Assembly: GCF_051903065.1 (NCBI RefSeq)
Contig: NZ_CP178439.1
Reading direction: 5' to 3' (one strand)
DNA from: Escherichia coli
GTDB taxonomy: Bacteria; Pseudomonadota; Gammaproteobacteria; Enterobacterales; Enterobacteriaceae
Length of the DNA: 64,000 bases
Below, piece by piece: positions 7,189 through 47,092 of this stretch. The translations under genes were made by a program, and so were the position numbers. Numbering within the stretch: position 1 is the stretch's first letter; each line of letters opens with the position of its first letter. The notes beneath the pieces were generated by a model. That model did not search any database. It was not told the DNA's origin and saw only the letters and a program-made list of their open reading frames with translations.

Positions 7189-8007
7189 ATGACTCAAAAC
7201 CAGGGTTCTGAGCCAGTACCGGCGAGCCGGACAGGGCAGCTCATCAGCGCCCGGGATATGGCCATGCAGAAATTCGAAGAAGGGATGCGGTTAATCTCGG
7301 AAGCGTCGGAACTGTGCGGTCTCTCTCTCTTCACCAGCAGAATTATGCAGCCCAACGCATTTGGTCTTCCGTCGTCACTGGATCGCACCATCGAGGAGGG
7401 GCGTAAGGAAATTGACCGTAAAACGTGGAAAAGGCTCTTTGAAGAAACAGGTATGGACCGGTACTGGAACCATAAGCAAAAAGAAGCCTTTAACGAATCC
7501 CTTCGTACGGATCCGCCCGTCGCTTCCCTGGAGATTGTTAAGGGAACATTACAGCATGCACTGGCTAACAGACGAGACACCCTTGCAGAAGGTTTCGTTG
7601 ATGTTCTCAACAAGCTTGACCGAAGTTTCAAAAGCAATGCCAGGCAATATACAATGCCAAAAAAGCTTGTTCTTCGGGGGATTTTTCCTGGTGTGAACGT
7701 GCTGAGGTACAACGGTTTCTCGCAGGACAATCACTTTTGTTTACGCGACTTTGAGAATATTGTATGCATCTGTTCTGATACTCCAACACCTGCAACCGGC
7801 GGTGGGCTGAGTATGGTCGACAGGCTGACGGCCATGAGAAATACAGAATTCACAGGCGAGGTCAGTGATGAGAATGGCTGGCGGTGTCGCCTGTTTGAGA
7901 ATGGAAACGTTCATATTTGCATCGACAGTATCTCGCTTCTGAATGCTCTGAACGATCTTATCAGCATATATTTTGCAAACCAGCTTCCGGCCGCAGGAAA
8001 AAAATGA
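7189..8007 (+). CDS. Hypothetical protein (about 272 aa)
   Basis: ORF 7177..8007; ATG at 7189 has GGAG 6 nt upstream; stop overlaps next start (ATGA at 8004..8007). Confidence 0.55.
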   Translation: MTQNQGSEPVPASRTGQLISARDMAMQKFEEGMRLISEASELCGLSLFTSRIMQPNAFGLPSSLDRTIEEGRKEIDRKTWKRLFEETGMDRYWNHKQKEAFNESLRTDPPVASLEIVKGTLQHALANRRDTLAEGFVDVLNKLDRSFKSNARQYTMPKKLVLRGIFPGVNVLRYNGFSQDNHFCLRDFENIVCICSDTPTPATGGGLSMVDRLTAMRNTEFTGEVSDENGWRCRLFENGNVHICIDSISLLNALNDLISIYFANQLPAAGKK

Positions 8008-9209
8008 TGATTGAAAATGATAAAGAAAAAAGCCTGAACGATGCTACCCCGCCAGAGGTGCAGAATGACATCCGCAGCGAATCCACTGAAAAATCAAAGG
8101 AAATGGGTCGTTCAAGGTACTCATCTATCGCGATGATCGATTACTTCAATGCAATCGAACGTCTGTGCAAAGAGAAAGAAATTAACCCGGAAAATATCGA
8201 TCTGAGCTTCAAAGTTCACTGGCTCAGAAACGCTGTTGGCGGCTCGTTTGCAAGGTCACAGGAGATGTTCGCGGAGTACCAGAAGTATGTTAAAGAGGTT
8301 CCTGAAGAGGCCCGTTACCTGGATATACCCGATGAGGTAAAGGTTGCACTCGGCGATATTATCTCGTACATCACCTGGCACTACCGTAGAAGCTATACCG
8401 CAATACAGAATGATAGTGTTAAAAAAGCTGAAGCACGTAGCATGCAGCTGGAGGAGGAGGTAACGCAGCTGTTACAGCGGCTTGAGCAAAGCGCTACCGA
8501 TATGGATGAGCTGAAACTTGAGAATCAGGCACTACAGGGTCGATTAGAGATCCGGGACAGTACCGTCAAGGAGTTAGAAACAAGGCTGAATGTTGCCGAA
8601 GCAGAACTCGAAACCTGCCATCACCAGTTAGATAGCACACGGCATGAATTGAGCCTCGCACAGCAGTCAAATGACTCACTCTCCCAGCAACTGGCTGAAC
8701 GTAAAACAGAGATCGCTGGTCACCTTGAATATCAAAAAAAGCTGAACGAAGAGATCAACACGCAGCGTTCTGATAACGCCGGTCTTTCCAGACAATGCGA
8801 CCAGTTAAGTCAGACTGTGTCAGATACAAAGGCAGAGAGGGACAGGTTTGAACAGGAATTGATTGCTGCACAGAACCTTTGTACTGAGCTGAAAAGTGCA
8901 CTGTCCGGGAAAGAGGGTGACCTGGTGGCGGTGAATGCCGAGCTTACTGAACTCCATAAACTAAACGAGTCGCTGAGCGCCGACCTGAATAAAGTAACTT
9001 TGGTCAGCCAGGGCTATGAAGCGGAAGTGGCTGAACAAAGCAATGAACTCAAAACGCTCCAGGCCAAAGTAATGAAGCTGGAAGCTACCCTGGAGGCGGA
9101 GAAAACAATCTCAGAATCCCTAAAAGGCACCATTGATACATTAACTGGTGCAATGGCAGGGGGAGGTACTGGAAAGTCAAAACAGCCGCGTAGCAGAAAA
9201 ACATCATGA
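8004..9209 (+). CDS. Coiled-coil protein (401 aa), KfrA-like architecture
   Basis: Globular N-terminus then ~300 aa of heptad-like E/Q/L-rich sequence; translationally coupled to upstream gene. Confidence 0.55.
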   Translation: MMIENDKEKSLNDATPPEVQNDIRSESTEKSKEMGRSRYSSIAMIDYFNAIERLCKEKEINPENIDLSFKVHWLRNAVGGSFARSQEMFAEYQKYVKEVPEEARYLDIPDEVKVALGDIISYITWHYRRSYTAIQNDSVKKAEARSMQLEEEVTQLLQRLEQSATDMDELKLENQALQGRLEIRDSTVKELETRLNVAEAELETCHHQLDSTRHELSLAQQSNDSLSQQLAERKTEIAGHLEYQKKLNEEINTQRSDNAGLSRQCDQLSQTVSDTKAERDRFEQELIAAQNLCTELKSALSGKEGDLVAVNAELTELHKLNESLSADLNKVTLVSQGYEAEVAEQSNELKTLQAKVMKLEATLEAEKTISESLKGTIDTLTGAMAGGGTGKSKQPRSRKTS

Positions 9210-9272
9210 TAAATGAAGCCAGGTTGATACACTTCTCTGCATCCCCTGGCACATAAGAACTTCTGCGGACAT

Positions 9273-9476
9273 TCAGCCCGTCCGCAGGAGTTTTCGTCCT
9301 TCAGTCAACAAATGCACTACCTTTTTTGAGTCTCCACTTTCCAGAGCAGAAAACACGTTACCGATTCTACCAACAGCTTGTATCTGAGTGATAACCCCAG
9401 TCTTGTAATCATCTAGGATCCCTGACAGGAAAGCGTTCAGTTTTGTCTGTTCGCTTAGCGAAAGCATGTAGGACAT
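9273..9476 (-). CDS. Small hypothetical protein (67 aa)
   Basis: ORF immediately downstream of 9489..10808 on the same strand. Confidence 0.3.
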   Translation of the reverse strand: MSYMLSLSEQTKLNAFLSGILDDYKTGVITQIQAVGRIGNVFSALESGDSKKVVHLLTEGRKLLRTG

Positions 9477-9488
9477 TTTTTCTCCATT

Positions 9489-10808
9489 TTAAGCAGGTGT
9501 GTCAGTTGAAAGAGGTTTGCGTGATTCTGGAAAATGAGGCAGCACCATAGTTTCAGATGCTGTGGTCGCATCCCAGTGCCACCATCCATAAGGCCCATAT
9601 TCACGGTTGTAATAATCTTTTTTGAGTTGCTTTCGGGCCAGATAAGCAGGAGTGGCCATACCAAATACTTCCATCGGGAACGGCTTATCGCTTTTTGTGT
9701 CGAGCAGGTAGAAGTCAGGGAACACCTCACTAATACTCGCATCATAACGCATGGGCTTAACGTACTGCCGGTGCTCTGCATCCAGCTTTTCTGCAACAAC
9801 CGCCTCATAGGAGGAGTCCAGAGGTATCCAGTTCTCGCTAACGTGCATCAGCACAATTTGATGAGCTCTTACAGAAGGGCCTCTGCCGGTTACCGCAGCT
9901 GGTGACGTCAACGCAAAGACAACTATTTTCGCCCCGGATTTCCATGCTGCGTACTCCGATGAAAATCGTTTCTTTACGCTATCCCAATGGACTTCTGAAT
10001 TGAAAAAAATCAGCGGTAGCCCCCCAAAATTCCGCAGGGGTAAAAATTTAAGTGGCTTCTCATGCTTTTCAGCATCGTAGCGAGGTAAAACTGACAGGAG
10101 CATGAGACGTTTATCACTCATCGCCTGTGATGAAAGACGCTGAATTTGCGACTGAGCGACAGGTTGTTTCGGGTCAGGTACACCAATGAATAAATGGTCA
10201 CCTATGCAGGCTCTGCCGGTACGAATTTGTTTAGCGGTTTCAAGCAGACGATACCGTACCAGTGAATCGTTACGTTTCCCTGCCATTTTCGGGTACCAGA
10301 CATTCAGACCAGACTCTGTCCACAAAAGACTAAGCAAGCCCAGGAGGGTCATTGAGGCCTGACCTCCTTCTGGTCGCTGAACATGGGGCAGGGGAGGCAC
10401 TTCTGATTTTTCAGGAGGATCTTTCTCTGTCATACCGATACCGAGCCTTACAGCCATATCACCTTCGGTTGTAATCCGGACCACACCACTCGCATATCCT
10501 TTCAGGCCGGTATGCCGGGCATCAAGGGAGAAGAATACACAGGAAGGATCATGCTCAATGCCCGTGTTAGCGGCTTTGACGAGAATAAAGGCATCACCGT
10601 TCGGTAAAGCACGAACATAAAGTCGCTTTTCTCCTTTTCCACGACATCCGCAGGTGATGACTGATTTTTGACCTGAGGTGTGGTGTGCCTTTTTAAGAGC
10701 CGACTGCCACCCTTTAGCAAACTCATCCTGCGTTTGAAAGTCAGGTGAATACCTTTTGACGTTTGGATCGTCGTCGTAAGCAATCATCACTGCGAATTTT
10801 TGGCTCAT
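9489..10808 (-). CDS. Hypothetical protein (439 aa), conserved-plasmid-protein appearance
   Basis: Long ORF with AGGAGA RBS 6 nt upstream; co-oriented downstream of the Dcm-like gene. Confidence 0.6.
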   Translation of the reverse strand: MSQKFAVMIAYDDDPNVKRYSPDFQTQDEFAKGWQSALKKAHHTSGQKSVITCGCRGKGEKRLYVRALPNGDAFILVKAANTGIEHDPSCVFFSLDARHTGLKGYASGVVRITTEGDMAVRLGIGMTEKDPPEKSEVPPLPHVQRPEGGQASMTLLGLLSLLWTESGLNVWYPKMAGKRNDSLVRYRLLETAKQIRTGRACIGDHLFIGVPDPKQPVAQSQIQRLSSQAMSDKRLMLLSVLPRYDAEKHEKPLKFLPLRNFGGLPLIFFNSEVHWDSVKKRFSSEYAAWKSGAKIVVFALTSPAAVTGRGPSVRAHQIVLMHVSENWIPLDSSYEAVVAEKLDAEHRQYVKPMRYDASISEVFPDFYLLDTKSDKPFPMEVFGMATPAYLARKQLKKDYYNREYGPYGWWHWDATTASETMVLPHFPESRKPLSTDTPA

Positions 10809-10830
10809 AGTAGTCTCCTAAACAGGAAGT

Positions 10831-10998
10831 TTAATATCCCAACCAGAGCAACACTTCCTGAGCGTCATACTGTTCCTTTACGCCCATGTCGCTAAAGAAT
10901 TCTTCGAAATCTGTTTCGGGAACGCAATGCCTGGACAGTTCTTGTAATGCTCGTTCTTTAGATACCGTCTCACCTTCAGCTGATTCGAAATACGTCAT
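10831..10998 (-). CDS. Small acidic protein (55 aa, MTYFESAEGETVSKERALQELSRHCVPETDFEEFFSDMGVKEQYDAQEVLLWLGY)
   Basis: Hand-translated ORF below the 60-aa track cutoff, between the Dcm-like gene and the 439-aa gene; GAGG upstream. Confidence 0.35.
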   Translation of the reverse strand: MTYFESAEGETVSKERALQELSRHCVPETDFEEFFSDMGVKEQYDAQEVLLWLGY

Positions 10999-11058
10999 GG
11001 TTGACCTCTGACATTATTACAACAATCTTAAGCATTTAAATTGATGAAGGAGCTCAGG

Positions 11059-12528
11059 TCAGCTGACTTCGTCGTAAAACTGCCGCAAGCGCTGGGAGGC
11101 TGCAAATTCAATTCGTGACTTCAGCAGTTTGGCGACGGCCGCAAAGACATCAACGACCACGGAGTTCCCAAACTGTCTGTAAGCCTGTGTATTGGACACA
11201 GGGATACGGAAAACACTTTCCCCGGGTTTATCGAAGCCCATTAGCCTGCTGCATTCACGTGGCGTTAGCATGCGTGGCCGACGGTCCATGTTGTATGTGT
11301 TATGGAAATCAGTTTCTCCCAGTTCATGAGACCAGCCCCGATCAATAAGAATTTCAGATCCGTCTTTCATATAGCGGCTTGAGAGGGTTCTGGTGACACT
11401 ATTAACATTGGAAGGATCTACTAGTCCAAAACCAAAACCATTGCCTTTTGCCGCATGTTTCTTTGCATAGTTGTATAAGTACTCCCAGAGTTTAGGGGAG
11501 AGGATGTATTTACTATCTACGCTCGGATCCAGTAAATCTGAGAGAGAAGGGCGCTTGTCCGGATAAAAGTCTTTAATGTCTCTCAGAGTAAAACCGTCTT
11601 TCAGACGTAGGTCGCGGCGAAAACCAATAAGGACGATACGTTCACGGTGCTGGGGTCGGAAATGACGGCCATCGATGACTTTAGGATCATCCGCGCCCGT
11701 GCTTTCGCTGTTTGCGACGTCGTAGCCAAGCTCATCGAGCGTTTTCATGATGATGTTAAAGGTATTACCCTTATCGTGACTCTTCAGATTTTTTACGTTT
11801 TCCAGAACAAAAATTGCAGGTTGTTTTGCCCGGATGATCCTGGCCACATCAAAGAAGAGCGTACCCTGAGTGTCGCACTCGAAACCGTGTTTGCGACCCA
11901 TAGAGTTCTTTTTACTGACACCGGCGATGCTGAATGGCTGGCATGGAAATCCCGCAAGAAGAACATCATGATCCGGGATAGAGGCATCGATAAATTTGTA
12001 TGCCTCGTCATCAGTAACCTCGGGCCGGTTGCTAAGAGTGATGTCACGGATGTCTGAATTGAAGCGGTGCTCGTTCTCATCGCAATACCAGTTCGCCCGG
12101 TAAGTACGGCTGGAATAAGTATTCCATTCGCTCGTGAAAAGACATTTACCACCGATGGCATCAAATCCGCTTCGCAGTCCACCTATCCCTGCAAACAGAT
12201 CGATAAAGCTAAAGTGCCTGTCCTCATAATCAGCAGGTCGTGAAGGTATTAAAGTCTGTAGATAGCGTCCATCTGCGATACTCAGCTCACAATGCTCAGG
12301 TATGCATGTAACCTGACGTTTAAGGGATGCACGGGACCAATTACTGCCATTTTCATCATTTAATACCTGAGCCAGATATTTCAGGTCATAAATGGTCGAA
12401 GCTGTTAACAAAGTTTTGTGGATCAGAGATGGTGTTTTATCCACATCATTCAGGTCTGTCTCAAGATCATGAGTGTAACGTTTCATCCAAACTCTCTCAG
12501 GAATAATATCTTTGAGATAGATTAACAC
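11059..12528 (-). CDS. dcm: DNA cytosine-5 methyltransferase, Dcm-like
   Basis: Motif [16 protein letters not shown], motif [13 protein letters not shown] motif, QFGNSV; near-collinear with E. coli Dcm / M.EcoRII as recalled; no vsr downstream. Confidence 0.85.
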
Positions 12529-15574: not shown

Positions 15575-15594
15575 TACTGTATGTATGTACAGCA
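15575..15594. promoter_or_regulatory. LexA (SOS) box-like site TACTGTATGTATGTACAGCA
   Basis: CTGT-N8-ACAG consensus read directly, about 200 bp upstream of gene 15799. Confidence 0.5.
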
Positions 15595-25589: not shown

Positions 25590-26409
25590 GGCACTGTTGC
25601 AAAGTTAGCGATGAGGCAGCCTTTTGTCTTATTCAAAGGCCTTACATTTCAAAAACTCTGCTTACCAGGCGCATTTCGCCCAGGGGATCACCATAATAAA
25701 ATGCTGAGGCCTGGCCTTTGCGTAGTGCACGCATCACCTCAATACCTTTGATGGTGGCGTAAGCCGTCTTCATGGATTTAAATCCCAGCGTGGCGTTGAT
25801 TATCCGTTTCAGTTTGCCATGATCGCATTCAATCACGTTGTTCCGGTACTTAATCTGTCGGTGTTCAACGTCAGACGGGCACCGGCCTTCGCGTTTGAGC
25901 AGAGCAAGCGCGCGACCATAGGCGGGCGCTTTATCCGTGTTGATGAATCGCGGGATCTGCCACTTCTTCACGTTGTTGAGGATTTTACCCAGAAACCGGT
26001 ATGCAGCTTTGCTGTTACGACGGGAGGAGAGATAAAAATCGACAGTGCGGCCCCGGCTGTCGACGGCCCGGTACAGATACGCCCAGCGGCCATTGACCTT
26101 CACGTAGGTTTCATCCATGTGCCACGGGCAAAGATCGGAAGGGTTACGCCAGTACCAGCGCAGCCGTTTTTCCATTTCAGGCGCATAACGCTGAACCCAG
26201 CGGTAAATCGTGGAGTGATCGACATTCACTCCGCGTTCAGCCAGCATCTCCTGCAGCTCACGGTAACTGATGCCGTATTTGCAGTACCAGCGTACGGCCC
26301 ACAGAATGATGTCACGCTGAAAATGCCGGCCTTTGAATGGGTTCATGTGCAGCTCCATCAGCAAAAGGGGATGATAAGTTTATCACCACCGACTATTTGC
26401 AACAGTGCC
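25590..26409 (-). mobile_element. tnpA: IS26 copy 3, transposase CDS 25642..26346, Asn at residue 184
   Basis: IRs at both ends; inverted relative to copy 2. Confidence 0.95.
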
Positions 26410-26566
26410 CTTCATCATTATGAATATGAAAAAGCCGAATGCGGCGACTACCACATTTATCCCCGGGGCTATGGACGCAGCAACTTTGCAGGGCGCAATC
26501 GAAAAAGCTCGCGGGGCCTAAAGTTACTTTCACTTTTGATGAGTACGGCCATGCCGGTCATGGCCG

Positions 26567-27826
26567 CTACGCTTTTACAACGAGTAATTCATCCCAGCGG
26601 GTCGTATATCTCGGTGATAGCATGGCCTGTTTCATACGAAAATCCTGTTGAATGCCTTCCCCCAGCAAAAACAGAGCTCCGCGCTTTTCTTTATTGAACC
26701 GGTCCATAACTTTCATCAGTGCCTGACTGCCAGGCCTGGCCGGGCGCTCATCAAACAGGCTGAGTTGCTCTGTGCCGTCAGTCATAGCGGAGAGCATTAC
26801 CCCAGCTTTCGCATACGCTATCCCGGGTTTGTAAATGCGGTTCAGGATGGTCATGGCTGCATCAACCAGATCGCGGGTGTCCTGTGTAGCGGTAAGCGGC
26901 TCGATACCACAATTGCTGTAGCGGTTTTCACCTTGCGCATAATTGCTGCTCTGAATGAAGACTGTGATTTGACGGGTCCACGAGCCATCCTTGCGCAGCT
27001 GCTCTGCCGCCCGGGCGGTAAAAAATGAAACTGCCTCATGTAGCTTGCCTATCTCATTAAGGCGCTGACCAAAACTTCTGGAAACGATAATCTGTTGCCG
27101 GACAGGAGGGGATTCATGCAGCCGGAAACATGGTTCGCCATGCAGTTCCCGCCAGGTACGCTCGATTTCAACGCCAAAGCTTTTACGTAAAAAGCGAACG
27201 TCGCTATTATAAAAATCACCGGCAGTGATGATCCCGAAAGCCGACAGGCGTTCACTGATCTTTTGACCAATACCCCATATTTCTCTGGTACTGATAAGGC
27301 CCAGGAGCTTCCTGATCCTGGCCTGATCAGTCAAAACTACAACCCCGCCTGTAGCTGCCCATCGTTTGCTCGCATAGGTGCATAATTTAGCCAGGGTTTT
27401 GGTGCTTGAACACCCCACACCACAGGTAAGGGACAGATTATGAAGAAGTGTACTTCTGATCAACCGGCCGTAATCTTCATAATCTATTATCTTGTTCATG
27501 TTTTTCAATAACATGAAATTTTCATCTATGCTATATCGACTCGATTGAGGCGCGAAGCTTTCCAGCGTTTCATGGAAGCGATTTGAGTAGTCTTCATACA
27601 AAGTAAAGTTAGAGCTCCGGACTTCGATCTGGTGTTGCTGAATCAAATCCCTGCACTTAAAAATTGGGGTCCCACGCTTAATACCAACGCTTTTAGCCAG
27701 TTTATTCATTGCAATGACGGACGAATCGTTATTGCTGGCTATGATGAGCGGCTTTTTTGCCAGCTTGGGATCCATCGCACACTCAAATGCCGCATAGGCC
27801 CCGTTAATATCAACGTGCATGTACAT
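26567..27826 (-). CDS. umuC: Y-family translesion DNA polymerase subunit, UmuC/MucB/ImpB-like
   Basis: 419-aa protein, MYMHVDINGAYAAFE N-terminus typical of UmuC; overlaps the upstream umuD-like gene. Confidence 0.8.
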   Translation of the reverse strand: MYMHVDINGAYAAFECAMDPKLAKKPLIIASNNDSSVIAMNKLAKSVGIKRGTPIFKCRDLIQQHQIEVRSSNFTLYEDYSNRFHETLESFAPQSSRYSIDENFMLLKNMNKIIDYEDYGRLIRSTLLHNLSLTCGVGCSSTKTLAKLCTYASKRWAATGGVVVLTDQARIRKLLGLISTREIWGIGQKISERLSAFGIITAGDFYNSDVRFLRKSFGVEIERTWRELHGEPCFRLHESPPVRQQIIVSRSFGQRLNEIGKLHEAVSFFTARAAEQLRKDGSWTRQITVFIQSSNYAQGENRYSNCGIEPLTATQDTRDLVDAAMTILNRIYKPGIAYAKAGVMLSAMTDGTEQLSLFDERPARPGSQALMKVMDRFNKEKRGALFLLGEGIQQDFRMKQAMLSPRYTTRWDELLVVKA

Positions 27827-28244
27827 GGCTAAACTGATTCAGTGCAAAGGTGACGACGCCCCATATCTCAAGGGATTCGGGATTTACACGTATCGGCTTA
27901 TAGGCTGGATTAGAAGGCATCAAAAGCAGCTCAGGATACGTGTGTAAGATCTTTACCGTGAACTCTCCATCCACCAGCGCAACGACGATAGAGCCGTGTC
28001 GTGCCGTTAAAGACCGATCCACAACCAGAATAGCGCCATCATTGATACCGGCATTGATCATACTGAGGCCCGCCGCCCTGACAAAGAAGGTTGAGGGGCG
28101 GTTACGGACTACATATTCATGCAAATTTAATTCATTATCTTCATGCCCGGCGCACGGACTCATCACTCCACAGCTCAGTAAATCACTGAAAAAAGGTGCC
28201 ATTTCGTAAGGCTTGTTGCTAATGTGCTCAAGGATAACAGACAT
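27810..28244 (-). CDS. umuD: UmuD/MucA/ImpA-like S24 peptidase (LexA-like self-cleaving)
   Basis: 144-aa protein with S24 LexA-like fold motifs (GLSMINAGINDGAILVVDRS). Confidence 0.8.
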   Translation of the reverse strand: MSVILEHISNKPYEMAPFFSDLLSCGVMSPCAGHEDNELNLHEYVVRNRPSTFFVRAAGLSMINAGINDGAILVVDRSLTARHGSIVVALVDGEFTVKILHTYPELLLMPSNPAYKPIRVNPESLEIWGVVTFALNQFSHVHAR

Positions 28245-28263
28245 AGCTACACTCGAATTCTCA

Positions 28264-28283
28264 TACTGTATGTATAAACAGTA
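28264..28283. promoter_or_regulatory. LexA box TACTGTATGTATAAACAGTA upstream of umuD-like gene
   Basis: Perfect CTGT-N8-ACAG, 20 bp upstream of the start codon. Confidence 0.75.
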
Positions 28284-28437
28284 TTGCGAGTTACAGAGAA
28301 AAGATCAAATCTCTCCGGTAACGCTATCGAGCCTGACGAAAAATTAAGCTTTGTCACAAACACCAAAAACCATCTTTTACCGATAATGGCGAGCTGGCCT
28401 ACGAAGAAGGTATACAAGCTAGGATGAAAGGATTCTG

Positions 28438-29055
28438 ATGCCCCTCCCACCAAATTTTTTATCTCCTGAAGACCAGGCTGAGTACGATGCTTATATGTCA
28501 AGATTCAGCGAGATAAATCACTATTATGATTATCACACTGTCCCCGTGATTGACTGGTTCTTTAAACAAGCAACCGAGGCGTTGCATCACGAACTATGGA
28601 TACCGGCCTGTACGAGCTTCCTGAACGGGATTGAAACATCACTCATGGTTACGTTGAAGTCGCTGATGCTGAAACCAACAGTTAACGATCAGCATGCAGC
28701 TCCTGAGCTGGTGGACTTGGAGGGTATCTCCGTAATGAGTAATGCCTTACTGAGAAAGGCCAAGCAGGAAGGGGTGCCGGTAGAATTACTTTCATTTCCA
28801 GCCGAGCAGGATATGTTGGTTAAGGTAGCAGCCGGGAGAACACCTGAAGCAGAAATTGTCAGGCTGAGAAACAACCTATGCCATGGCAACATTCTGGAGT
28901 TTATCATGTCTGTTGATATCGGTACTTCAGGACCCATACGTATTTTTACGCCTGAATGCTGTCGTGAACTGGCGCATGAACTTTCGTCCATTTCCAGGAA
29001 TTGGGTGGTAGGTTTGCACAAGTACTGGGTCGACAACAATCTGATTTCCCCCTGA
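28438..29055 (+). CDS. Hypothetical protein (205 aa)
   Basis: ORF; no family recognised. Confidence 0.5.
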   Translation: MPLPPNFLSPEDQAEYDAYMSRFSEINHYYDYHTVPVIDWFFKQATEALHHELWIPACTSFLNGIETSLMVTLKSLMLKPTVNDQHAAPELVDLEGISVMSNALLRKAKQEGVPVELLSFPAEQDMLVKVAAGRTPEAEIVRLRNNLCHGNILEFIMSVDIGTSGPIRIFTPECCRELAHELSSISRNWVVGLHKYWVDNNLISP

Positions 29056-29204
29056 AGCTCCTTGAACCTTGCTTTCAGAAGCCAGGTGTATGAAACCCTA
29101 TTGGATAATATTTAAAGCCAAAATATGGGGATCTCGTATTCGGTGACAGGCATGGTATAAATGATGTGTCTGAGCAACCATCATTGATAATCATGGAGTG
29201 AGTC

Positions 29205-29561
29205 ATGAAATTAAAATACCTTCTGTTATGTGCAACTCTGTCTGTCGCCTTTACCTCCTCTGCGGTCCTTGCATCTGAAAACGGGAAAAAACCGATCCCG
29301 GGCAAATCAGATGTGATGGTTGCCGATATTTGTTTAAAACCTGAAATCCAAAGTGAAACCGATTATAAAAAAACGAAAGAACTGGTAAGGACTGAGTTTG
29401 AAGAAAACTTGCCTGTTGGATCTAAAATCAAAGAAAAAGACTTGAATGCCGTAATTGAAGCATTTGCTACTCGTAAAAGGGACACGCCGGAGCGAGCGGA
29501 CCATTGCCAAGAAAACGTACGTGAAAGATACTGGGAAATGAACCCGGTGAAAGATAAATAA
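29205..29561 (+). CDS. Secreted hypothetical protein (118 aa) with signal peptide
   Basis: N-terminal MKLKYLLLCATLSVAFTSSAVLA signal sequence. Confidence 0.5.
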   Translation: MKLKYLLLCATLSVAFTSSAVLASENGKKPIPGKSDVMVADICLKPEIQSETDYKKTKELVRTEFEENLPVGSKIKEKDLNAVIEAFATRKRDTPERADHCQENVRERYWEMNPVKDK

Positions 29562-29586
29562 AATACATTCACGTTGTATAATATAG

Positions 29587-29612
29587 AGGCTTCAATTCTG
29601 AAGCCTTTTTTA
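29587..29612 (+). terminator. Rho-independent terminator
   Basis: AGGCTTCA-ATTC-TGAAGCCT hairpin followed by TTTTTT. Confidence 0.5.
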
Positions 29613-29810
29613 TTTTCAGATTATTTTGATTCTGACAATAATGAAATAAAATTGAGCATTATCGCTTAACACTGGATAAGAAAAAGAGCCATCTTTTATA
29701 TTGGACAGGTTTGAATTTAAGGAATTTTGGATTCACAGTTTTCTGCGTTATTAGACGGCAAGGGCAATCTGGTATGATTCACCTAACACACGAATCTGGA
29801 AGGAAAAGTA

Positions 29811-29955
29811 TATGGGTGACCTGGTCAGCAAAAATAGCATTGACCGTTTAGAGCGATTTCATTCTTTGCTGGCGGGTCAGTACTGGACGTCCACTGACAG
29901 CATCCCTGAAGAGGGTATTGTGGCAGGGGATACACTGCTCATTACGTCTTTGCGT
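29811..29955 (+). pseudogene. N-terminal 48 codons of an unknown gene, cut by IS26
   Basis: ATG with GGAAGGA upstream; reading frame runs into the IS26 left end. Confidence 0.3.
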
Positions 29956-30775
29956 GGCACTGTTGCAAATAGTCGGTGGTGATAAACTTATCATCCCCTT
30001 TTGCTGATGGAGCTGCACATGAACCCATTCAAAGGCCGGCATTTTCAGCGTGACATCATTCTGTGGGCCGTACGCTGGTACTGCAAATACGGCATCAGTT
30101 ACCGTGAGCTGCAGGAGATGCTGGCTGAACGCGGAGTGAATGTCGATCACTCCACGATTTACCGCTGGGTTCAGCGTTATGCGCCTGAAATGGAAAAACG
30201 GCTGCGCTGGTACTGGCGTAACCCTTCCGATCTTTGCCCGTGGCACATGGATGAAACCTACGTGAAGGTCAATGGCCGCTGGGCGTATCTGTACCGGGCC
30301 GTCGACAGCCGGGGCCGCACTGTCGATTTTTATCTCTCCTCCCGTCGTAACAGCAAAGCTGCATACCGGTTTCTGGGTAAAATCCTCAACAACGTGAAGA
30401 AGTGGCAGATCCCGCGATTCATCAACACGGATAAAGCGCCCGCCTATGGTCGCGCGCTTGCTCTGCTCAAACGCGAAGGCCGGTGCCCGTCTGACGTTGA
30501 ACACCGACAGATTAAGTACCGGAACAACGTGATTGAATGCGATCATGGCAAACTGAAACGGATAATCAACGCCACGCTGGGATTTAAATCCATGAAGACG
30601 GCTTACGCCACCATCAAAGGTATTGAGGTGATGCGTGCACTACGCAAAGGCCAGGCCTCAGCATTTTATTATGGTGATCCCCTGGGCGAAATGCGCCTGG
30701 TAAGCAGAGTTTTTGAAATGTAAGGCCTTTGAATAAGACAAAAGGCTGCCTCATCGCTAACTTTGCAACAGTGCC
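29956..30775 (+). mobile_element. tnpA: IS26 copy 4, transposase CDS 30019..30723, Asn at residue 184
   Basis: Both IRs present; flanks ctttgcgt / cactgatc do not match. Confidence 0.95.
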
Positions 30776-31220
30776 CACTGATCCGCATGCCCGTTCCATA
30801 CAGAAGCTGGGCGAACAAACGATGCTCGCCTTCCAGAAAACCGAGGATGCGAACCACTTCATCCGGGGTCAGCACCACCGGCAAGCGCCGCGACGGCCGA
30901 GGTCTTCCGATCTCCTGAAGCCAGGGCAGATCCGTGCACAGCACCTTGCCGTAGAAGAACAGCAAGGCCGCCAATGCCTGACGATGCGTGGAGACCGAAA
31001 CCTTGCGCTCGTTCGCCAGCCAGGACAGAAATGCCTCGACTTCGCTGCTGCCCAAGGTTGCCGGGTGACGCACACCGTGGAAACGGATGAAGGCACGAAC
31101 CCAGTGGACATAAGCCTGTTCGGTTCGTAAACTGTAATGCAAGTAGCGTATGCGCTCACGCAACTGGTCCAGAACCTTGACCGAACGCAGCGGTGGTAAC
31201 GGCGCAGTGGCGGTTTTCAT
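30776..31220 (-). pseudogene. intI1: Class 1 integron integrase intI1, N-terminal 148 codons, truncated by IS26
   Basis: [49 protein letters not shown]... ends at the IS26 boundary. Confidence 0.85.
31105..31133 (+). promoter_or_regulatory. Integron cassette promoter Pc, hybrid type (-35 TGGACA, 17-bp spacer, -10 TAAACT); P2 lacks the GGG insertion
   Basis: Hexamers read at 31105..31110 and 31128..31133 inside intI1. Confidence 0.6.
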
Positions 31221-41810: not shown

Positions 41811-41906
41811 ATGATTAACCTGTTAATCATCGTTCTCAGGGCTGTGGTCGCCGTTGCAAACGCGCTGATTGCAGTTCTGGAACTGATCCGTCAGTTCATC
41901 GACTGA
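41811..41906 (+). CDS. Candidate type I toxin, DinQ/TisB-like 31-aa hydrophobic peptide (MINLLIIVLRAVVAVANALIAVLELIRQFID)
   Basis: Hand-translated ORF; LELIR motif shared with DinQ as recalled; SD within a CTCCAG-N7-CTGGAG hairpin; terminator-like hairpin at 41928..41954. Confidence 0.45.
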   Translation: MINLLIIVLRAVVAVANALIAVLELIRQFID

Positions 41907-41972
41907 TGACTGCGGAAACGTAACTAAGGGCAGGAAGTGCACCGCTTCCTGCCCTTTAACAAAGGAGGATTT

Positions 41973-42152
41973 ATGGATTTTATGAGCATTTTGGGGCGCT
42001 GTTTACTTCTTCCTTTCCCTGTTGCGATGTTTGTCGGTTGCCTGTTTCCAGGCATTGATGATCGTTTTACTGGAATGTTCATGAGTTTTATTGTCGGTTG
42101 TCTATCGTGGTATATCACCAAGCCAAAACCGCAAAAGGCTGAGGTCGCGTAA
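41973..42152 (+). CDS. Small membrane protein (59 aa)
   Basis: Strong RBS AAGGAGG 6 nt upstream of ATG; two hydrophobic helices. Confidence 0.4.
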   Translation: MDFMSILGRCLLLPFPVAMFVGCLFPGIDDRFTGMFMSFIVGCLSWYITKPKPQKAEVA

Positions 42153-42538
42153 GCGGCCTTTTTTACGTCTCTCGTTTAATTCCTCGCCATTCTGTCCAGA
42201 AATAGTATTGCGGCTAATCAAGCCAATTCCTACGTCTTTTCGCTGTTGCACGATCTAAAAGAAAATATGGGAAAATTTCATGAAAGTATGGTACTAAAGG
42301 GTCTTTAATTCCTTTATCTTGTTCCTTCAACTGCACAGTATCTCGTAAAAACCAACAAGCCGGTTGTTTAAAAAACGCTCTTAGCGTAGGATGTTTTCCA
42401 TTTTCCAAGTGGAACCCAAGTACGATGCCCGCGAAAAAGACAGCCCTCTTATGAAGAGGGCTGTTATCTGATATAGGCTTGTTATGGTCTCACTCTTGAT
42501 TAATCAGGTGTATGTGCAACCTTGGTGCACACAATCGA

Positions 42539-44440
42539 TTATGCAGCTTGATGATCTGAAGTGTTACCGGAAGTATCTTCGGTTCGTTTTTTGTTTGTGA
42601 TGGATTCACTTTTATCTCGCAAGGCTGAGTCTATGACGTTAAACACCTTTTCCCACCGAGAAATCCAACCGCATATAGGTTGAACACGACATTTTTCCAG
42701 GAAGAAATTTAATAAGTTAGTTTTTTTATTATCTTGCACTTTGAATGGTTCAATTACATCATCGGCATCAACAGATTTTCCTCCGATAAACCACGACGGA
42801 TGGGTTTCCATTGCGTCAGAAATGAAATCGTCAGGGAAGAGGCCTTCAATAGCAAAACCACTTCTTACAGAAATATAGTCTTTATTTGACTCAAATCTAA
42901 TTTGTTTTTTACCAAAGTAGCTTTGTAATCTGGTTCTTTCTTTGACCCCAGCTTCATCACCGTCAAAAACAGATATTACGGGGACATCTTTAGAAATAAA
43001 CTCGTAGCACCCTTTCAAGAATCCCCCAAGTTGACTGACTCCACCAAACTCATCAACTTTAGCACTCCTCAGAAAAGGCCATCTGTTCTTAAACTCATCA
43101 TCTTCAGATGTCAATTTCAATATTGATTCTATATATTGTTTGTCGGTGATACCTTCAACGAAAACTGCACTACTTGATATGTTAAAGAAATCAGAAAATC
43201 TGACCCCAAGATTTTCTCTTATGCTTGCAACTGCATTAAATCTTTTTTCATGCTTTTTATCTTTTGTAACACCGGCGTCATCTTTATATAACTCAATGAT
43301 CTTACTTGGCTCATCACTGACAAATGATAAGGAATGAGTTGTAATAAGAACATAAGCAACATCCATCAGTGATTTGAAAATGTGATTACATGACCGGCCT
43401 AATGAGGGATGCAAGAAAGACTCAGGCTCCTCAACCATCCAAATCGTTTTCTTACCTAGAGTAAGTTTTCTCTCTGAAATAGATTTAAATGAAGAAAATA
43501 AAGATAAGCATTGTAGCCCCATACCTTTACTCGATATCACATTCTCAATAGTATCTTTTATTGAAACCTCAAAGCGACCAAATAACTCATCAAGAGATGG
43601 CGGAGCTTTAATAATAAAGCTACAGTCATCTATACCGCTTAGAATCATTTCATTTGTTATCTTTTCAGATACTTCCAACAGTTTATCATGAATCACTTGA
43701 ACCGATGTTTTCATGGCTGAAGCTACTTCACTCCTAACATATGGAACTAATAGATTATGATATATATCATCAATACTTTTTGACGATGGTATATACACAC
43801 ACTCAAAACTAGAAAGTATTTTTTCTATGAACCTTCTTTCAACAGATGTATACATGGAGGAAGTTACTTCAGGTTTCCTCTTGTAACCTTTAAAGACAGT
43901 GTAAAAGTAATTGTTTTTATTAGATATTGTCAGATGTACGGTCACTTCGTTTTGAGGTGACTTTAACCTGGAGTCATCAATCATGTTAAACAGCTGCAAA
44001 TATCTATCTCTCAAACTTAGCTTTCTGCCTCTTGATTGAGTTGGTTTTGATTCTTGTTGTTTAGAGCTGCCATCATCAAATGAAATAGAATTACTAGGCT
44101 CTTCTTGCTCCCCTAAAACACCAAGTTCAATAATCGAGTCATCATCGTCATCATCATCGTCTTGGCTCAAATCCTCAGAGACATCATCTAGCTCACTTTC
44201 AGAAAAAGTAAATCTTACAGCAAAACTAGTTTGTCCTTGCTTAACACCATGTGGCTTATCTTTTTCATAGTCATATAAGTCAGGATTAAATTTTCCTTCA
44301 AAAAAAACCCTCATAGCTTTTAATAGGTTTGTTTTACCACTGTTGTTTTGCCCAACAATGGTTAATCCATTAAAGTTATCAGAGGATATCTCCCCTGAAA
44401 TAGACCTATACTGAGAAACTTTAAATGATACTATTTCCAT
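42539..44440 (-). CDS. OLD-family ABC-type ATPase fused to a TOPRIM nuclease domain (633 aa)
   Basis: Walker A GQNNSGKT, Walker B IWMVEEPESFLHP, H-loop ITTHS, then TOPRIM-like VFVEGITDKQ and FDGDEAG; eight-Asp run; AT-rich. Confidence 0.7.
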   Translation of the reverse strand: MEIVSFKVSQYRSISGEISSDNFNGLTIVGQNNSGKTNLLKAMRVFFEGKFNPDLYDYEKDKPHGVKQGQTSFAVRFTFSESELDDVSEDLSQDDDDDDDDSIIELGVLGEQEEPSNSISFDDGSSKQQESKPTQSRGRKLSLRDRYLQLFNMIDDSRLKSPQNEVTVHLTISNKNNYFYTVFKGYKRKPEVTSSMYTSVERRFIEKILSSFECVYIPSSKSIDDIYHNLLVPYVRSEVASAMKTSVQVIHDKLLEVSEKITNEMILSGIDDCSFIIKAPPSLDELFGRFEVSIKDTIENVISSKGMGLQCLSLFSSFKSISERKLTLGKKTIWMVEEPESFLHPSLGRSCNHIFKSLMDVAYVLITTHSLSFVSDEPSKIIELYKDDAGVTKDKKHEKRFNAVASIRENLGVRFSDFFNISSSAVFVEGITDKQYIESILKLTSEDDEFKNRWPFLRSAKVDEFGGVSQLGGFLKGCYEFISKDVPVISVFDGDEAGVKERTRLQSYFGKKQIRFESNKDYISVRSGFAIEGLFPDDFISDAMETHPSWFIGGKSVDADDVIEPFKVQDNKKTNLLNFFLEKCRVQPICGWISRWEKVFNVIDSALRDKSESITNKKRTEDTSGNTSDHQAA

Positions 44441-44545
44441 TTTTCTTCCTACGATAGAATATTGCTCGGATTATCGACATTTTTTCCCAAGGCTTTAACT
44501 GTCTTTCGCTACTTGGATAAATGGCTCTTCCTCCACTGTTCTGCT

Positions 44546-45055
44546 TTATTTTCGCCAGAAAGCCCACCATGCATGTTGTTTGTCCTGAAGTGCTGCTTTA
44601 TCCTGAAGCAATTCAGCACTCACTGCCCCCTGAAGCACAGAAACGGCGTTTCTCGCGGCATTGCGACAGGAATCAATAACCTCTGGTTCGTTGGGCTTTC
44701 TGAGCAGGATAAATTGCGATACTTTGGACTGAGTATCAAAAGCATAGATTCGCAATTCAGGGGAGGATGTCAGGCTTACAATATTATGCAACCGCATATA
44801 ATTGGTGTAGTCCTTGCTACTTGGATCACATGATTCATAAAGATATTTCTGCATTAGCGTTTGCGATGAAGAAAGAAAATCTATATAGCGGTCAGTTTTT
44901 TTATCTATATCCCGCAGTCGCTGAGCTATTGCATCTTTTCTTATTTCGTGGCAGTGTGTTAATTTCAGTGTAATCCAGCCACCAACAATGGTGATTAATG
45001 CACCCAGCCCAATTTTAACGGCATTATCAGCCACATCTACCCACTCAGTTGCCAT
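44546..45055 (-). CDS. Hypothetical protein with N-terminal TM helix (169 aa)
   Basis: ORF 105 bp upstream of and co-oriented with the OLD-like gene. Confidence 0.45.
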   Translation of the reverse strand: MATEWVDVADNAVKIGLGALITIVGGWITLKLTHCHEIRKDAIAQRLRDIDKKTDRYIDFLSSSQTLMQKYLYESCDPSSKDYTNYMRLHNIVSLTSSPELRIYAFDTQSKVSQFILLRKPNEPEVIDSCRNAARNAVSVLQGAVSAELLQDKAALQDKQHAWWAFWRK

Positions 45056-45182
45056 CTGTTACGTGTTCTTCCTGTGATGATCATGGTCGCTAGTATAATT
45101 CTCCGGCTGACTGGACATACAGCATTTTCTGTCCAAGATTAATAACCTCGAACTGCAACACAATGCCGCAGATGATGCAAAG

Positions 45183-46031
45183 GGGGAGCCCGCAGAATTC
45201 GGAAAAAATCGTACGCTAAGGTTTTCCGGGCATCCGTAAGGGCCGAAACTTCCCGTCTTCCAGTCTGCGGCTCTGCCGCCAGACGTAATCGCCGGTTAGG
45301 TTGATGTGCTCCCAGCCCAGCGGCGACAGGAATTGCAGCAGCTCGCCGTCCACCGGCTTGCCGGCCTCGACCAACCCCTGGGTGGCGCGTTCCAGGTACA
45401 CCGTGTTCCACAGCACGATAGCCGCCGTCACCAGGTTGAGGCCGCTGGCCCGGTAGCGCTGCTGCTCGAAGCTCCGATCCCTGATTTCCCCAAGGCGGTT
45501 GAAGAACACCGCCCTGGCCAGCGAGTTGCGCGCCTCACCTTTGTTCAGGCCGGCATGCACGCGGCGGCGCAGTTCAACACTTTGCAGCCAGTCCAGGATG
45601 AACAGCGTGCGCTCGATCCGGCCCAGCTCGCGCAGGGCCACGGCCAGTCCGTTCTGGCGCGGGTAGCTGCCGAGCTTGCGCAGCATCAGCGAGGCGGTGA
45701 CGGTGCCCTGCTTGATCGAGCTGGCCAGGCGCAGGATGTCGTCCCAGTGGGCACGCACGTGCTTGATGTTCAGGGTGCCGCCGATCAGCGGGCGCAACGT
45801 CGGGTAGGCTTGCACGCCCTGCGGCACGTACAGCTTGGTTTCGCCGAGGTCGCGGATGCGCGGCGCGAAGCGGAAGCCTAGCAGGTGCATCAGGGCAAAG
45901 ACGTGATCGGTGAAGCCGGCCGTGTCGGTGTAGTGCTCCTCGATCCGCAGGTCGGACTCGTGGTACAGCAGGCCGTCGAGCACATAGGTGGAATCGCGGA
46001 CGCCGACATTCACCACGCGGGTGCTGAACGG
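45183..46031 (-). mobile_element. tnpA: Second Tn1721-type transposon end: 38-bp IR (45183..45220) plus tnpA 3' fragment, truncated by IS26 52 bp further 3' in tnpA than the copy at 17879..18779
   Basis: Identical IR and TnpA C-terminus; retained tnpA is 52 bp shorter than in the first copy. Confidence 0.85.
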
Positions 46032-46851
46032 GGCACTGTTGCAAATAGTCGGTGGTGATAAACTTATCATCCCCTTTTGCTGATGGAGCTGCACATGAAC
46101 CCATTCAAAGGCCGGCATTTTCAGCGTGACATCATTCTGTGGGCCGTACGCTGGTACTGCAAATACGGCATCAGTTACCGTGAGCTGCAGGAGATGCTGG
46201 CTGAACGCGGAGTGAATGTCGATCACTCCACGATTTACCGCTGGGTTCAGCGTTATGCGCCTGAAATGGAAAAACGGCTGCGCTGGTACTGGCGTAACCC
46301 TTCCGATCTTTGCCCGTGGCACATGGATGAAACCTACGTGAAGGTCAATGGCCGCTGGGCGTATCTGTACCGGGCCGTCGACAGCCGGGGCCGCACTGTC
46401 GATTTTTATCTCTCCTCCCGTCGTAACAGCAAAGCTGCATACCGGTTTCTGGGTAAAATCCTCAACAACGTGAAGAAGTGGCAGATCCCGCGATTCATCA
46501 ACACGGATAAAGCGCCCGCCTATGGTCGCGCGCTTGCTCTGCTCAAACGCGAAGGCCGGTGCCCGTCTGACGTTGAACACCGACAGATTAAGTACCGGAA
46601 CAACGTGATTGAATGCGATCATGGCAAACTGAAACGGATAATCGGCGCCACGCTGGGATTTAAATCCATGAAGACGGCTTACGCCACCATCAAAGGTATT
46701 GAGGTGATGCGTGCACTACGCAAAGGCCAGGCCTCAGCATTTTATTATGGTGATCCCCTGGGCGAAATGCGCCTGGTAAGCAGAGTTTTTGAAATGTAAG
46801 GCCTTTGAATAAGACAAAAGGCTGCCTCATCGCTAACTTTGCAACAGTGCC
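46032..46851 (+). mobile_element. tnpA: IS26 copy 8, transposase CDS 46095..46799, Gly at residue 184
   Basis: Both IRs present; flanks do not match. Confidence 0.95.
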
Positions 46852-47050
46852 GCGCGACGAGCAGCAGCACCAGGAGCAGAAGCACGTCGAGAAAAAGCAA
46901 CAGCAGATCGAGCAGCGCCCACGGCGGGCCGCTCGCATCGGATAAGTCGAAAAATCCGGCTAAAGTGGCCGAGCTGCACATCAGGCCGCGCGGTTTTCCT
47001 CCCTGATCGCCGGCGCGGTTTCTTCCTCCCTGAACCGCATGCAGACTTGC

Positions 47051-47080
47051 CGCCTCGGACACCCCGAGGCGGTTTTTTTT
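47051..47080 (+). terminator. Rho-independent terminator
   Basis: GCCTCGG-ACACC-CCGAGGC hairpin followed by GGTTTTTTTT. Confidence 0.5.
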
Positions 47081-47092
47081 CGCCTCGCTCGA

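Follow-up and report, generated by a model that had tools for sequence, protein, structure and literature searches.

An intact umuDC-type (pol V-like) operon of the IncHI2 plasmid backbone, predicted to be under SOS control, beside an IS26-mediated inversion

In the 64,000-nt stretch of Escherichia coli DNA analyzed here (the window), the segment 26567-28283 very probably represents a umuDC operon belonging to the backbone of a conjugative IncHI2 multiresistance plasmid and encoding a pol V-type translesion polymerase under the control of the host SOS response. The evidence comes from the two protein sequences, from a LexA operator conserved between IncHI2 lineages, and from the mapping of the surrounding backbone, in which a neighboring IS26 copy has inverted a large segment and left the operon whole.

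The umuD-like and umuC-like genes

The original prediction placed a UmuD/MucA-like and UmuC/MucB-like pair with overlapping genes at 26567-28283 and named no strand. Its coordinates hold once they are read on the minus strand, where the open reading frame list gives both genes, with the accessory gene first:

27810..28244, minus strand: umuD-like gene, 144 aa, predicted autoproteolytic accessory subunit of a pol V-type polymerase (ORF, profiles, alignment)
26567..27826, minus strand: umuC-like gene, 419 aa, predicted Y-family catalytic subunit (ORF, profiles, multiple alignment)
27810..27826, minus strand: umuD/umuC overlap, 17 nt, ATGTACATGCACGTTGA (sequence reading)

The umuD-like protein, which is identical to WP_000111290.1 of reference plasmids, matches Pfam PF00717 (S24; E=2e-24, 86 bits against a cut-off of 23.3) and NCBIfam NF007621 (UmuD; 129.8 bits against a cut-off of 110). 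Alignment to the E. coli UmuD/UmuD' structures 8gmt/1umu places its putative cleavage site, Cys25-Gly26, and its Ser61/Lys98 dyad in register with C24-G25, S60, and K97 of E. coli UmuD.

The umuC-like protein is identical to WP_042634445.1 and carries the Pfam domains IMS and IMS_C, followed at its C-terminus by DUF4113 (PF13438, residues 368-417, E=1.8e-17), which has been described as a RecA-binding (RecA-NT-like) motif (PMC6511836). It scores 464.7 bits on NCBIfam NF002955 (cut-off 431), with residues 1-418 aligned to model positions 1-422, and the DinB/pol IV models all fall far under their cut-offs. Its catalytic residues are Asp6 (VDING) and Asp101/Glu102 (SIDENF), its steric gate is Tyr11 (GAYAA), and a beta-clamp motif, QLSLF, is located at 354-358. 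In a multiple alignment with E. coli UmuC, IncN MucB, an IncI ImpB-type protein, and an IncL/M homologue, D6, Y11, D101/E102, QLxLF, and a C-terminal LSPxYTT block are shared with the aligned UmuC-type proteins. Residue 10, beside the steric gate, is Ala here, whereas it is Phe in E. coli UmuC and Met in MucB. In E. coli UmuC, the F10L substitution alone markedly increased fidelity and decreased mutagenesis (PMC3401427); given this effect and the presence of Ala10, the error rate of this enzyme is not readable from homology.

Neither open reading frame contains an internal stop codon. The whole operon is byte-identical to umuD/umuC in hundreds of IncHI2 plasmids, which argues that it carries no frameshifts; a check for frameshifts on alignment, set beforehand, likewise found none, as the curated models aligned over their full length and the copies were 100% identical. 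These results support the pair as a true pol V-type UmuD/UmuC operon with both genes at full length, and they agree with the original description of it as intact, with no damage caused by IS26. Comparison of the IncHI2 and IncHI1 pairs gave a pN of 0.10 and a pS of 0.69-0.77 (pN/pS about 0.13-0.15); proportions are given in place of dS because synonymous sites are saturated, the Jukes-Cantor dS of umuC not being computable at a pS of 0.765. Judged by these proportions, the umuDC module common to IncHI1 and IncHI2 is under strong purifying selection.

Annotated IncHI2 and IncHI1 records show the 17-nt overlap with the same geometry. On reading the sequence, no strong Shine-Dalgarno (SD) was found before umuD or before umuC; because none at all is visible at the umuC start within the overlap, umuC translation is probably coupled to that of umuD through the 17 shared nucleotides.

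Operator, candidate promoter, and 3′ hairpin

Three regulatory or structural elements were located at the two ends of the operon:

28264..28283, no strand assigned: putative LexA operator (SOS box), the 20-mer TACTGTATGTATAAACAGTA (motif search, shuffles, conservation)
28280..28308, minus strand: candidate sigma-70 promoter, with -35 TTGATC at 28308..28303, a 17-nt spacer, and -10 AATACT at 28285..28280 (from the sequence)
26546..26566, minus strand: perfect 8-bp GC-rich hairpin, CGGCCATG-ACCGG-CATGGCCG (sequence, RNA fold)

The LexA box had been called perfect and placed 20 bp upstream of umuD. This is accurate for the core, CTGT-N8-ACAG at 28266..28281, and for its TA flanks, but the full 20-mer matches the palindromic consensus TACTGTATATATATACAGTA at 18 of 20 positions, with two mismatches. 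The gap to the umuD ATG is 19 nt, or 20 if counted base to base, and the end of the box at 28283 was given exactly. Sites with at most three mismatches to the 20-mer consensus occur twice in the window and in none of 100 dinucleotide-preserving shuffles of it. The operator is identical in a second IncHI2 lineage, and IncHI1 plasmids have a palindromic CTGG/CCAG variant at the same place. A second LexA box is present in the window at 15575..15594. Some plasmids, pEC_ABCX4-1 among them, have a group II intron at the umuDC operator.

A consensus promoter scan upstream of umuD returned no match at threshold, and the promoter is therefore proposed from comparative evidence only. The candidate agrees with the consensus at 8 of 12 positions, under the threshold of the scanner, and its -10 overlaps the operator. 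The corresponding elements of E. coli umuDC, TTGATC-17-TACTGT, align in register with it, and the stretch from TTGATC to an RBS-like GAGTG block is the sole intergenic part conserved between IncHI2 and IncHI1. This arrangement suggests that the operon is under LexA (SOS) control through a putative operator of near-consensus quality.

The hairpin begins right after the umuC stop codon, in the gap where umuC and the dsbA-family gene converge, and has been retained; its predicted fold has an energy of -18.1 kcal/mol (z = -2.6). Since no U-tract follows it on the umuC strand, a terminator scan did not report it there as an intrinsic terminator. No Rfam matches were found between 25500 and 30000 on either strand at E up to 1.

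IS26, the dsbA-family gene, and the plasmid setting

The neighborhood of the operon includes two IS26 copies, the two parts of a dsbA-family gene, and a divergent gene upstream of umuD:

25590..26409, minus strand: IS26 copy "a", 820 bp, terminal repeats found, adjoining the operon (IS mapping)
26410..26521, plus strand: 3′ remnant of a dsbA-family gene, 112 nt, cut by IS26 (mapping to pSTM6-275)
53318..54137, plus strand: IS26 copy "b", inverted relative to "a" and its inversion partner (IS mapping)
54138..54843, minus strand: 5′ part of the dsbA-family gene (backbone mapping)
28438..29055, plus strand: divergent hypothetical gene, 205 aa (ORF list, synteny)

Between IS26 copy "a" and the umuC stop codon lie 157 nt (26410..26566), the same distance as originally reported. 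The first 8 nt of the dsbA-family 3′ remnant, CTTCATCA at 26410..26417, recur as their reverse complement, TGATGAAG, at 54138..54145, and this inverted 8-bp target duplication identifies the event as an IS26-mediated inversion. Judged by these flanks, IS26 "a" is one end of an inverted segment of about 27 kb (26410..53317): two IS26 copies in inverse orientation have the same 8-bp target on the same side and interrupt a single gene. Bringing positions 26410 and 54138 together perfectly restores the dsbA-family gene from its two halves, along with the rest of the transfer-region backbone; the IncHI2 transfer-region backbone runs on to 62144. The structure fits either of two routes: a one-step intramolecular replicative transposition, or an insertion after which inverted copies recombined. 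The inversion broke the convergent dsbA-family gene in two, while the operon, the operator, and the 3′ hairpin all stayed whole; the operon thus survived a rearrangement of the kind that deleted umuDC in other plasmids. Both the cut in the dsbA-family gene and the large inversion are additional to the original prediction, which was silent on them. The exact IS26/dsbA'/umuC junction was not found among the 5,000 PLSDB matches listed and is probably absent from that collection; the sole match among them with at least 80% coverage has another structure, in which IS26 truncates umuC. Analysis of these IS26 copies helps to reconstruct the resistance region of the plasmid.

Identical matching records type the plasmid as IncHI2A. 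Direct identification yielded the resistance genes sul3, tet(A), aph(3')-Ia, and floR, and IS26 is present in eight complete copies, consistent with the earlier description of a plasmid with many resistance genes. The 3.5-kb segment containing the operon (3,540 bp) is 100% identical in many IncHI2A records (952 database matches, 518 of them at 99% or more), and the flanking transfer-region backbone is likewise 100% identical over 8,007 bp. As mapped, umuDC is part of the IncHI2 plasmid backbone. It is already known there: PGAP names the identical IncHI2 copies umuD/umuC, and mucA/B or umuC is a landmark in IncHI papers, where it appears as a constant marker of the IncHI2/IncHI1 backbone (PMC4855149, PMC9599605, PMC7366339). 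The pol V of IncH plasmids (IncHI1 and IncHI2) occurs at 80% identity or more in over 1,100 plasmid records. Damaged alleles exist elsewhere, such as an 18-aa stub truncated by IS26 in pF1140-1 and a 166-aa remnant in NZ_MW509820. The divergent 205-aa gene is syntenic with umuDC in both IncHI2 and IncHI1 (54% amino acid identity); nothing was found that ties it to the function of the operon, and neither its product nor that of a 118-aa ORF had matches in Pfam, NCBIfam, PADLOC, PHROGs, or PDB sequences.

Predicted function and comparison with known pol V systems

A mechanism can be outlined from E. coli UmuDC, pKM101 MucAB, and related systems. In an undamaged cell, host LexA would bind the operator overlapping the -10 of TTGATC-17-AATACT and repress transcription. 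DNA damage, including that caused by quinolones, would lead to RecA-ssDNA filaments, self-cleavage of LexA, and transcription of the operon, with umuC translated by coupling through the 17-nt overlap. RecA* would then stimulate self-cleavage of the UmuD-like dimer at Cys25-Gly26 by means of the Ser61/Lys98 dyad. The resulting UmuD'2-UmuC would take up RecA-ATP via the C-terminal DUF4113, bind the beta clamp via QLSLF, and copy across lesions with low fidelity. The cell would be expected to tolerate damage, which the literature calls "UV protection," and to acquire SOS-dependent base substitutions in its chromosome as well as the plasmid. By homology, the operon may therefore raise mutation rates under antibiotic-induced SOS, as originally proposed. 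Against this explanation, identity is below 50% to every characterized orthologue examined, and a literature search for functional tests of IncH-clade umuDC/mucAB returned annotation-level mentions only.

Other readings of the locus differ in how much of this explanation they would overturn. If the two genes were decaying remnants, either pseudogenes or reading frames with a wrong start or frame, next to a palindrome that resembles a LexA box by chance, little of it would stand; no point in favor of this was found, and its probability is negligible. Both proteins are full-length on curated models above cut-off and free of stops, which refutes a pseudogene or frameshift; they are also 100% identical to hundreds of annotated copies with a pN/pS of 0.13-0.15, the box is seen in no shuffle and is conserved across lineages, and the truly damaged alleles of pF1140-1 and NZ_MW509820 look different. 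It is slightly easier to imagine, and still very improbable, that umuDC is cargo of an IS26 composite transposon, the 3.5 kb between 25590..26409 and 29956..30775, and not resident backbone. The segment is indeed bracketed by two inverted IS26 copies, and IS26-flanked umuD-umuC units have been described in some plasmids (PMC12240926). However, the reverse-complement partner of the CTTCATCA beside IS26 "a" lies at 54138, adjoining IS26 "b"; the IS26 at 29956 is flanked by CTTTGCGT and CACTGATC instead. The perfect rejoining of the dsbA-family halves and backbone across 26410 and 54138 is also at odds with a transposon. Moreover, pSTM6-275 has an IS26 at the backbone position of the one at 29956, and there umuDC forms one unbroken stretch with dsbA and traG; the neighbors of umuDC are the same in IncHI1. 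The composite transposon is rejected on the flanking 8-mers and the backbone mapping together.

A reading with more weight, though we consider it less likely than a mutagenic operon, is that the operon is intact and wired to the SOS response, yet phenotypically almost silent in its native plasmid, adding little or nothing to the mutation rate of hosts that have chromosomal umuDC. Silence could result from low expression, from extra repression encoded by the plasmid, or from a relatively faithful or weak enzyme, and selection would then maintain damage tolerance of plasmid or host or a non-mutagenic role. There is precedent in the R391 element, whose rumAB is a potent mutator when subcloned and poorly mutagenic from the native element, where extra element-encoded repression keeps pol V almost non-mutagenic (PMC8460599). 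Plasmid umu homologues are very widespread, and their role has been described as one that "remains unclear" (PMC11541004). The weak RBS, the sub-consensus promoter, and Ala10, located beside the steric gate where one E. coli substitution strongly altered fidelity, point in the same direction, as does the operator, since a strong operator predicts tight repression. On the other hand, the strong purifying selection across IncHI1 and IncHI2 implies that the umuDC proteins do something useful, the catalytic, clamp-binding, and RecA-binding motifs are all kept, and no candidate for an extra repressor was found. A silent operon parts from the preferred reading, that of an SOS-controlled translesion polymerase, only in the size of the phenotype.

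The practical point is generic, and the presence of the operon would not surprise a specialist: the IncHI2 plasmids responsible for spreading mcr-1, ESBL, and further resistance genes also bear an intact, SOS-wired, predicted error-prone polymerase. A more far-reaching possibility, which we regard as rather unlikely, is that the IncH pol V is a biochemically distinct branch in which Ala10 alters fidelity or ribonucleotide selectivity, that its SOS activity measurably speeds chromosomal resistance, and that it belongs to a wider plasmid SOS regulon including the box at 15575. If true, resistance arising in the chromosome, for example to quinolones or colistin, would emerge faster in hosts of the global mcr/ESBL plasmids.

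Among known pol V systems, identity to E. coli UmuDC, IncN MucAB, the IncI ImpAB type, and the IncL/M homologue ranges from 43.7 to 47.8% for UmuC and from 36.6 to 48.3% for UmuD. The original label of UmuDC/MucAB-like is correct at the level of the family, and the operon, as judged by alignment, belongs to a separate IncH clade. E. coli umuDC (47.8% for UmuC, 39.9% for UmuD) shares the gene order, the Cys-Gly site, the Ser/Lys dyad, D6/Y11/D101/E102, QLxLF, and DUF4113, along with a LexA box some 19 nt upstream of the ATG, a TTGATC further upstream, and an operator that differs at 2 of 20 positions. In E. coli K-12, umuC is also followed by a convergent disulfide-bond gene, dsbB there and a dsbA-family gene here. 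However, the genes overlap by 1 nt in K-12 and by 17 nt here, residue 10 is Phe there and Ala here, and the IncH operon is plasmid-borne.

The mucAB of IncN plasmids (pKM101/R46; pol RI) is likewise plasmid-borne, with overlapping genes and a LexA box near the ATG. It differs in the Ala-Gly site of MucA and Met10 of MucB (Cys-Gly and Ala10 here), in its replicon family, and in its neighboring genes. Since identity is only 45.3% to MucB and 48.3% to MucA, no closer than to chromosomal UmuDC, IncN mucAB is not the same orthologue, and the label "mucAB" in IncHI papers is a homology nickname only. The impCAB-type operons of IncI/K/B plasmids and the umuDC of IncL/M (pOXA-48-like) plasmids are also plasmid pol V homologues with LexA boxes, and the IncL box, TACTGTATGTATAAACAGTT, is nearly the same 20-mer as the IncHI2 operator. 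UmuC identity is 43.7% to each, and UmuD identity is 36.6% to the IncI ImpA type and 47.6% to IncL/M; the IncI type has a third, DinI-like gene upstream, whereas the IncHI2 operon has none.

The true sister is umuDC of IncHI1 plasmids (the "mucAB" of R27/pHCM1), with proteins of the same lengths, 144 and 419 aa, and amino acid identities of 81.2 and 83.8%. Its operator differs, being the symmetric variant TACTGGTTAAATATCCAGTA (CTGG...CCAG); if this behaves like the weaker E. coli boxes, LexA control there may be looser. In pHCM1, the order hypothetical gene-umuD-umuC-dsbA-family gene is the same, and the promoter block is conserved.

The umuDC-like operon and its products

Two overlapping genes on the minus strand bear out the original prediction of a UmuD-like and UmuC-like pair:

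28244 to 27810, minus strand: umuD-like ORF, 144 aa (ORF call)
27826 to 26567, minus strand: umuC-like ORF, 419 aa (ORF call)
26546..26566: perfect 8-bp hairpin directly 3′ of the umuC stop

The genes share 17 nt (ATGTACATGCACGTTGA) and neither contains an internal stop; careful alignment revealed no frameshifts, which had been named as refuting evidence, and the operon is intact. The UmuD-like protein scored 129.8 bits against NF007621, the NCBI curated model of the pol V autoproteolytic subunit (cut-off 110), and matched Pfam S24. Its Cys25-Gly26 cleavage site, Ser61, and Lys98 align in register with the solved E. coli UmuD/UmuD′ chains. The UmuC-like protein scored 464.7 bits against the UmuC subfamily model NF002955 (cut-off 431), aligned end to end (residues 1-418 on model 1-422), and contains the IMS, IMS_C, and DUF4113 domains; every pol IV model scored far under its cut-off on this protein. 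Multiple alignment with E. coli UmuC, IncN MucB, an IncI ImpB-type protein, an IncL/M homologue, and the IncHI1 copy identified Asp6, the steric-gate Tyr11, Asp101/Glu102, the beta-clamp motif QLSLF (354-358), and a conserved C-terminal block, with Ala at position 10, next to the steric gate. The original observation is confirmed, and its reading was right.

Beyond these features, the mechanism follows by analogy with the E. coli and pKM101 systems. The operon would be repressed by host LexA and released by DNA damage or by antibiotics that give rise to RecA filaments. The UmuD-like dimer would self-cleave at Cys25-Gly26, and the UmuD′2C complex, binding RecA-ATP through the DUF4113 motif (a RecA-binding motif; PMC6511836) and the clamp through QLSLF, would perform error-prone lesion bypass. 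The operon very probably encodes a functional, SOS-controlled pol V-type enzyme. We are much less sure of the size of any mutator effect, since rumAB is almost silent when carried by R391 itself, the element it comes from (PMC8460599), a recent survey called the role of plasmid umu operons unclear (PMC11541004), the ribosome-binding sites of both genes are weak, and residue 10 is Ala. In E. coli UmuC, a single F10L change sharply increased fidelity (PMC3401427). No functional study of an IncH-clade umuDC was found in the literature searched.

LexA operator and predicted promoter

28264..28283: full LexA 20-mer, TACTGTATGTATAAACAGTA
28266..28281: its core, CTGT-N8-ACAG (motif scan)
28308..28303 (-35) and 28285..28280 (-10), minus strand: predicted promoter, TTGATC-17-AATACT

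The 20-mer ends exactly at the predicted coordinate, with 19 bases between it and the umuD ATG. It carries 2 mismatches to the palindromic consensus and 2 to the E. coli K-12 umuDC operator, so its description as a perfect LexA box holds for the core and TA flanks but not for the 20-mer. Sites with ≤3 mismatches to the 20-mer consensus numbered 2 in the window vs. 0 in 100 dinucleotide-preserving shuffles; a chance origin is excluded. Between IncHI2 and IncHI1 plasmids, intergenic conservation is confined to ~85 nt adjoining umuD, a block that opens with a TTGATC hexamer, includes the box, and closes with GAGTG a short way ahead of the ATG. The conservation of this block, together with the same register in E. 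coli umuDC (TTGATC-17-TACTGT), supports the predicted promoter, in which the operator would cover the -10. A consensus promoter scan placed it under threshold.

Some sister IncHI2 plasmids carry a 1,909-bp group II intron (ltrA, 5′ GTGCG) antisense to umuDC, inserted between bases 19 and 20 of the 20-mer (2172/2173 in the retrieved locus of pEC_ABCX4-1, corresponding to 28282|28283); hits H5 and H6 of the IncHI2 record search also have it at the operator. Splitting the putative -10 and parting the -35 from the operon, it amounts to a natural allele with a disrupted promoter. The intron is absent from the window.

Other LexA-type boxes occur in the window. One near-consensus box, TACTGTATGTATGTACAGCA (15575-15594, 3 mismatches), belongs to the conserved IncHI2 backbone; it sits in an AT-rich gap, 204 nt ahead of two hypothetical genes (15799-16260 and 16290-16697) without a Pfam or PADLOC match, one of which drew a faint PHROG hit. 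Possibly this box marks another SOS-controlled unit in IncHI2 plasmids. A CTGT-N8-ACAG site, CTGTTTTTTTGTACAG (31231-31250), closely precedes a class 1 integrase gene truncated by IS26 (30669-31220, minus strand) and corresponds to the LexA box known from the intI1 promoter. Two further boxes are identical to each other, GACTGTATGTAAACACAGTA. One (48563-48582) stops 17 nt short of the ATG of an ISCR2-type transposase ORF of 497 aa (48600-50093); the other (52847-52866) adjoins floR, within a repeat of that ORF's upstream sequence. A 2025 preprint (10.1101/2025.11.21.689736) describes ISCR transposases as SOS-controlled.

IS26 rearrangement beside the operon

25590..26409: IS26 "a," 820 bp, both terminal repeats present

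As predicted, this element ends 157 nt from the umuC stop and the operon escaped harm: the stop, the 3′ hairpin, and all upstream sequence are unaffected by the rearrangement. The gene hit instead belongs to the dsbA family, with its last 112 nt at 26410..26521 and the remainder at 54138..54843. This thioredoxin-fold backbone gene, beside the transfer region, is presumably inactive.

Positions 1..8007 of pSTM6-275, an IncHI2 reference with uninterrupted backbone (traG side through most of the dsbA-family gene), correspond to 62144..54138, inverted, and 8000..12366 to 26410..30776. The 8 bp common to both blocks, CTTCATCA, lie immediately right of IS26 "a" (26410..26417), and their reverse complement immediately right of the oppositely oriented IS26 "b" (54138..54145). 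This inverted repeat beside oppositely oriented copies, with the reference mapping, is what an IS26-mediated inversion of 26410..53317 characteristically leaves behind. A single intramolecular replicative transposition with the dsbA-family gene as target could have produced it, and so, equally, could an ordinary insertion and then recombination between the inverted copies; both routes lead to the same final structure. The IS26 "a"/dsbA-family/umuC junction was not found in PLSDB among the matches listed.

The 3.5 kb bracketed by the nearest IS26 copies was considered as a composite transposon, and rejected. The second copy (29956..30775) occupies its backbone position in pSTM6-275 and its flanks differ from those of IS26 "a," so the segment is trapped backbone. 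Over 849-54137 there are 8 complete 820-bp copies and one 301-bp fragment (39111-39411); their flanks, compared as target duplications, yielded no matching pair except the inverted 26410/54138, a pattern that points to a long succession of IS26 events in the resistance region. In the IncHI2 plasmid pF1140-1, IS26 has deleted umuD together with umuC except for an 18-aa "DUF4113" stub (2658-2714 of its locus), which shows that the plasmid can be maintained without the operon. Published work takes umuC as the boundary of the IncHI2 multiresistance region (PMC9599605).

Distribution and relatives

The 3.5-kb segment matched 952 records, 518 at ≥99%, and is 100% identical in many large conjugative plasmids of E. 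coli, Salmonella, Enterobacter, and Klebsiella; inspected records were typed IncHI2A, and PGAP already names the genes umuD and umuC. The operon is an already known, well-annotated, and ubiquitous IncHI2 backbone module. In the R478-like IncHI2 lineage, UmuD is identical, UmuC has 6 substitutions, and the operator is the same.

In the IncHI1 plasmid pHCM1, the gene order is unchanged (divergent hypothetical gene, umuD, umuC, convergent dsbA-family gene), and umuD and umuC each have the same length as here, with 81 and 84% amino acid identity. Between the two groups, pS is 0.69-0.77 (synonymous sites saturated), pN ~0.10, and pN/pS 0.13-0.15, demonstrating strong purifying selection on the operon. 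The pHCM1 operator (~2540-2560 of its locus) is a symmetric variant, TACTGGTTAAATATCCAGTA, with CTGG...CCAG replacing CTGT...ACAG; both half-sites being altered together suggests a still functional LexA site of different strength. The divergent 205-aa hypothetical gene (28438-29055) is syntenic in IncHI1 and IncHI2 (54% identity), and had no match in Pfam, NCBIfam, PADLOC, PHROG, or PDB sequences.

Plasmid homologues outside the IncH clade, as sampled by tblastn, were all <50% identical. IncHI2 UmuC shares 47.8% identity with E. coli UmuC, 45.3% with IncN MucB, and 43.7% with each of the IncI and IncL/M proteins. Given these identities, the name "mucAB" applied to these genes in IncHI papers (PMC4855149; PMC7366339) is best read as a homology nickname, not orthology.
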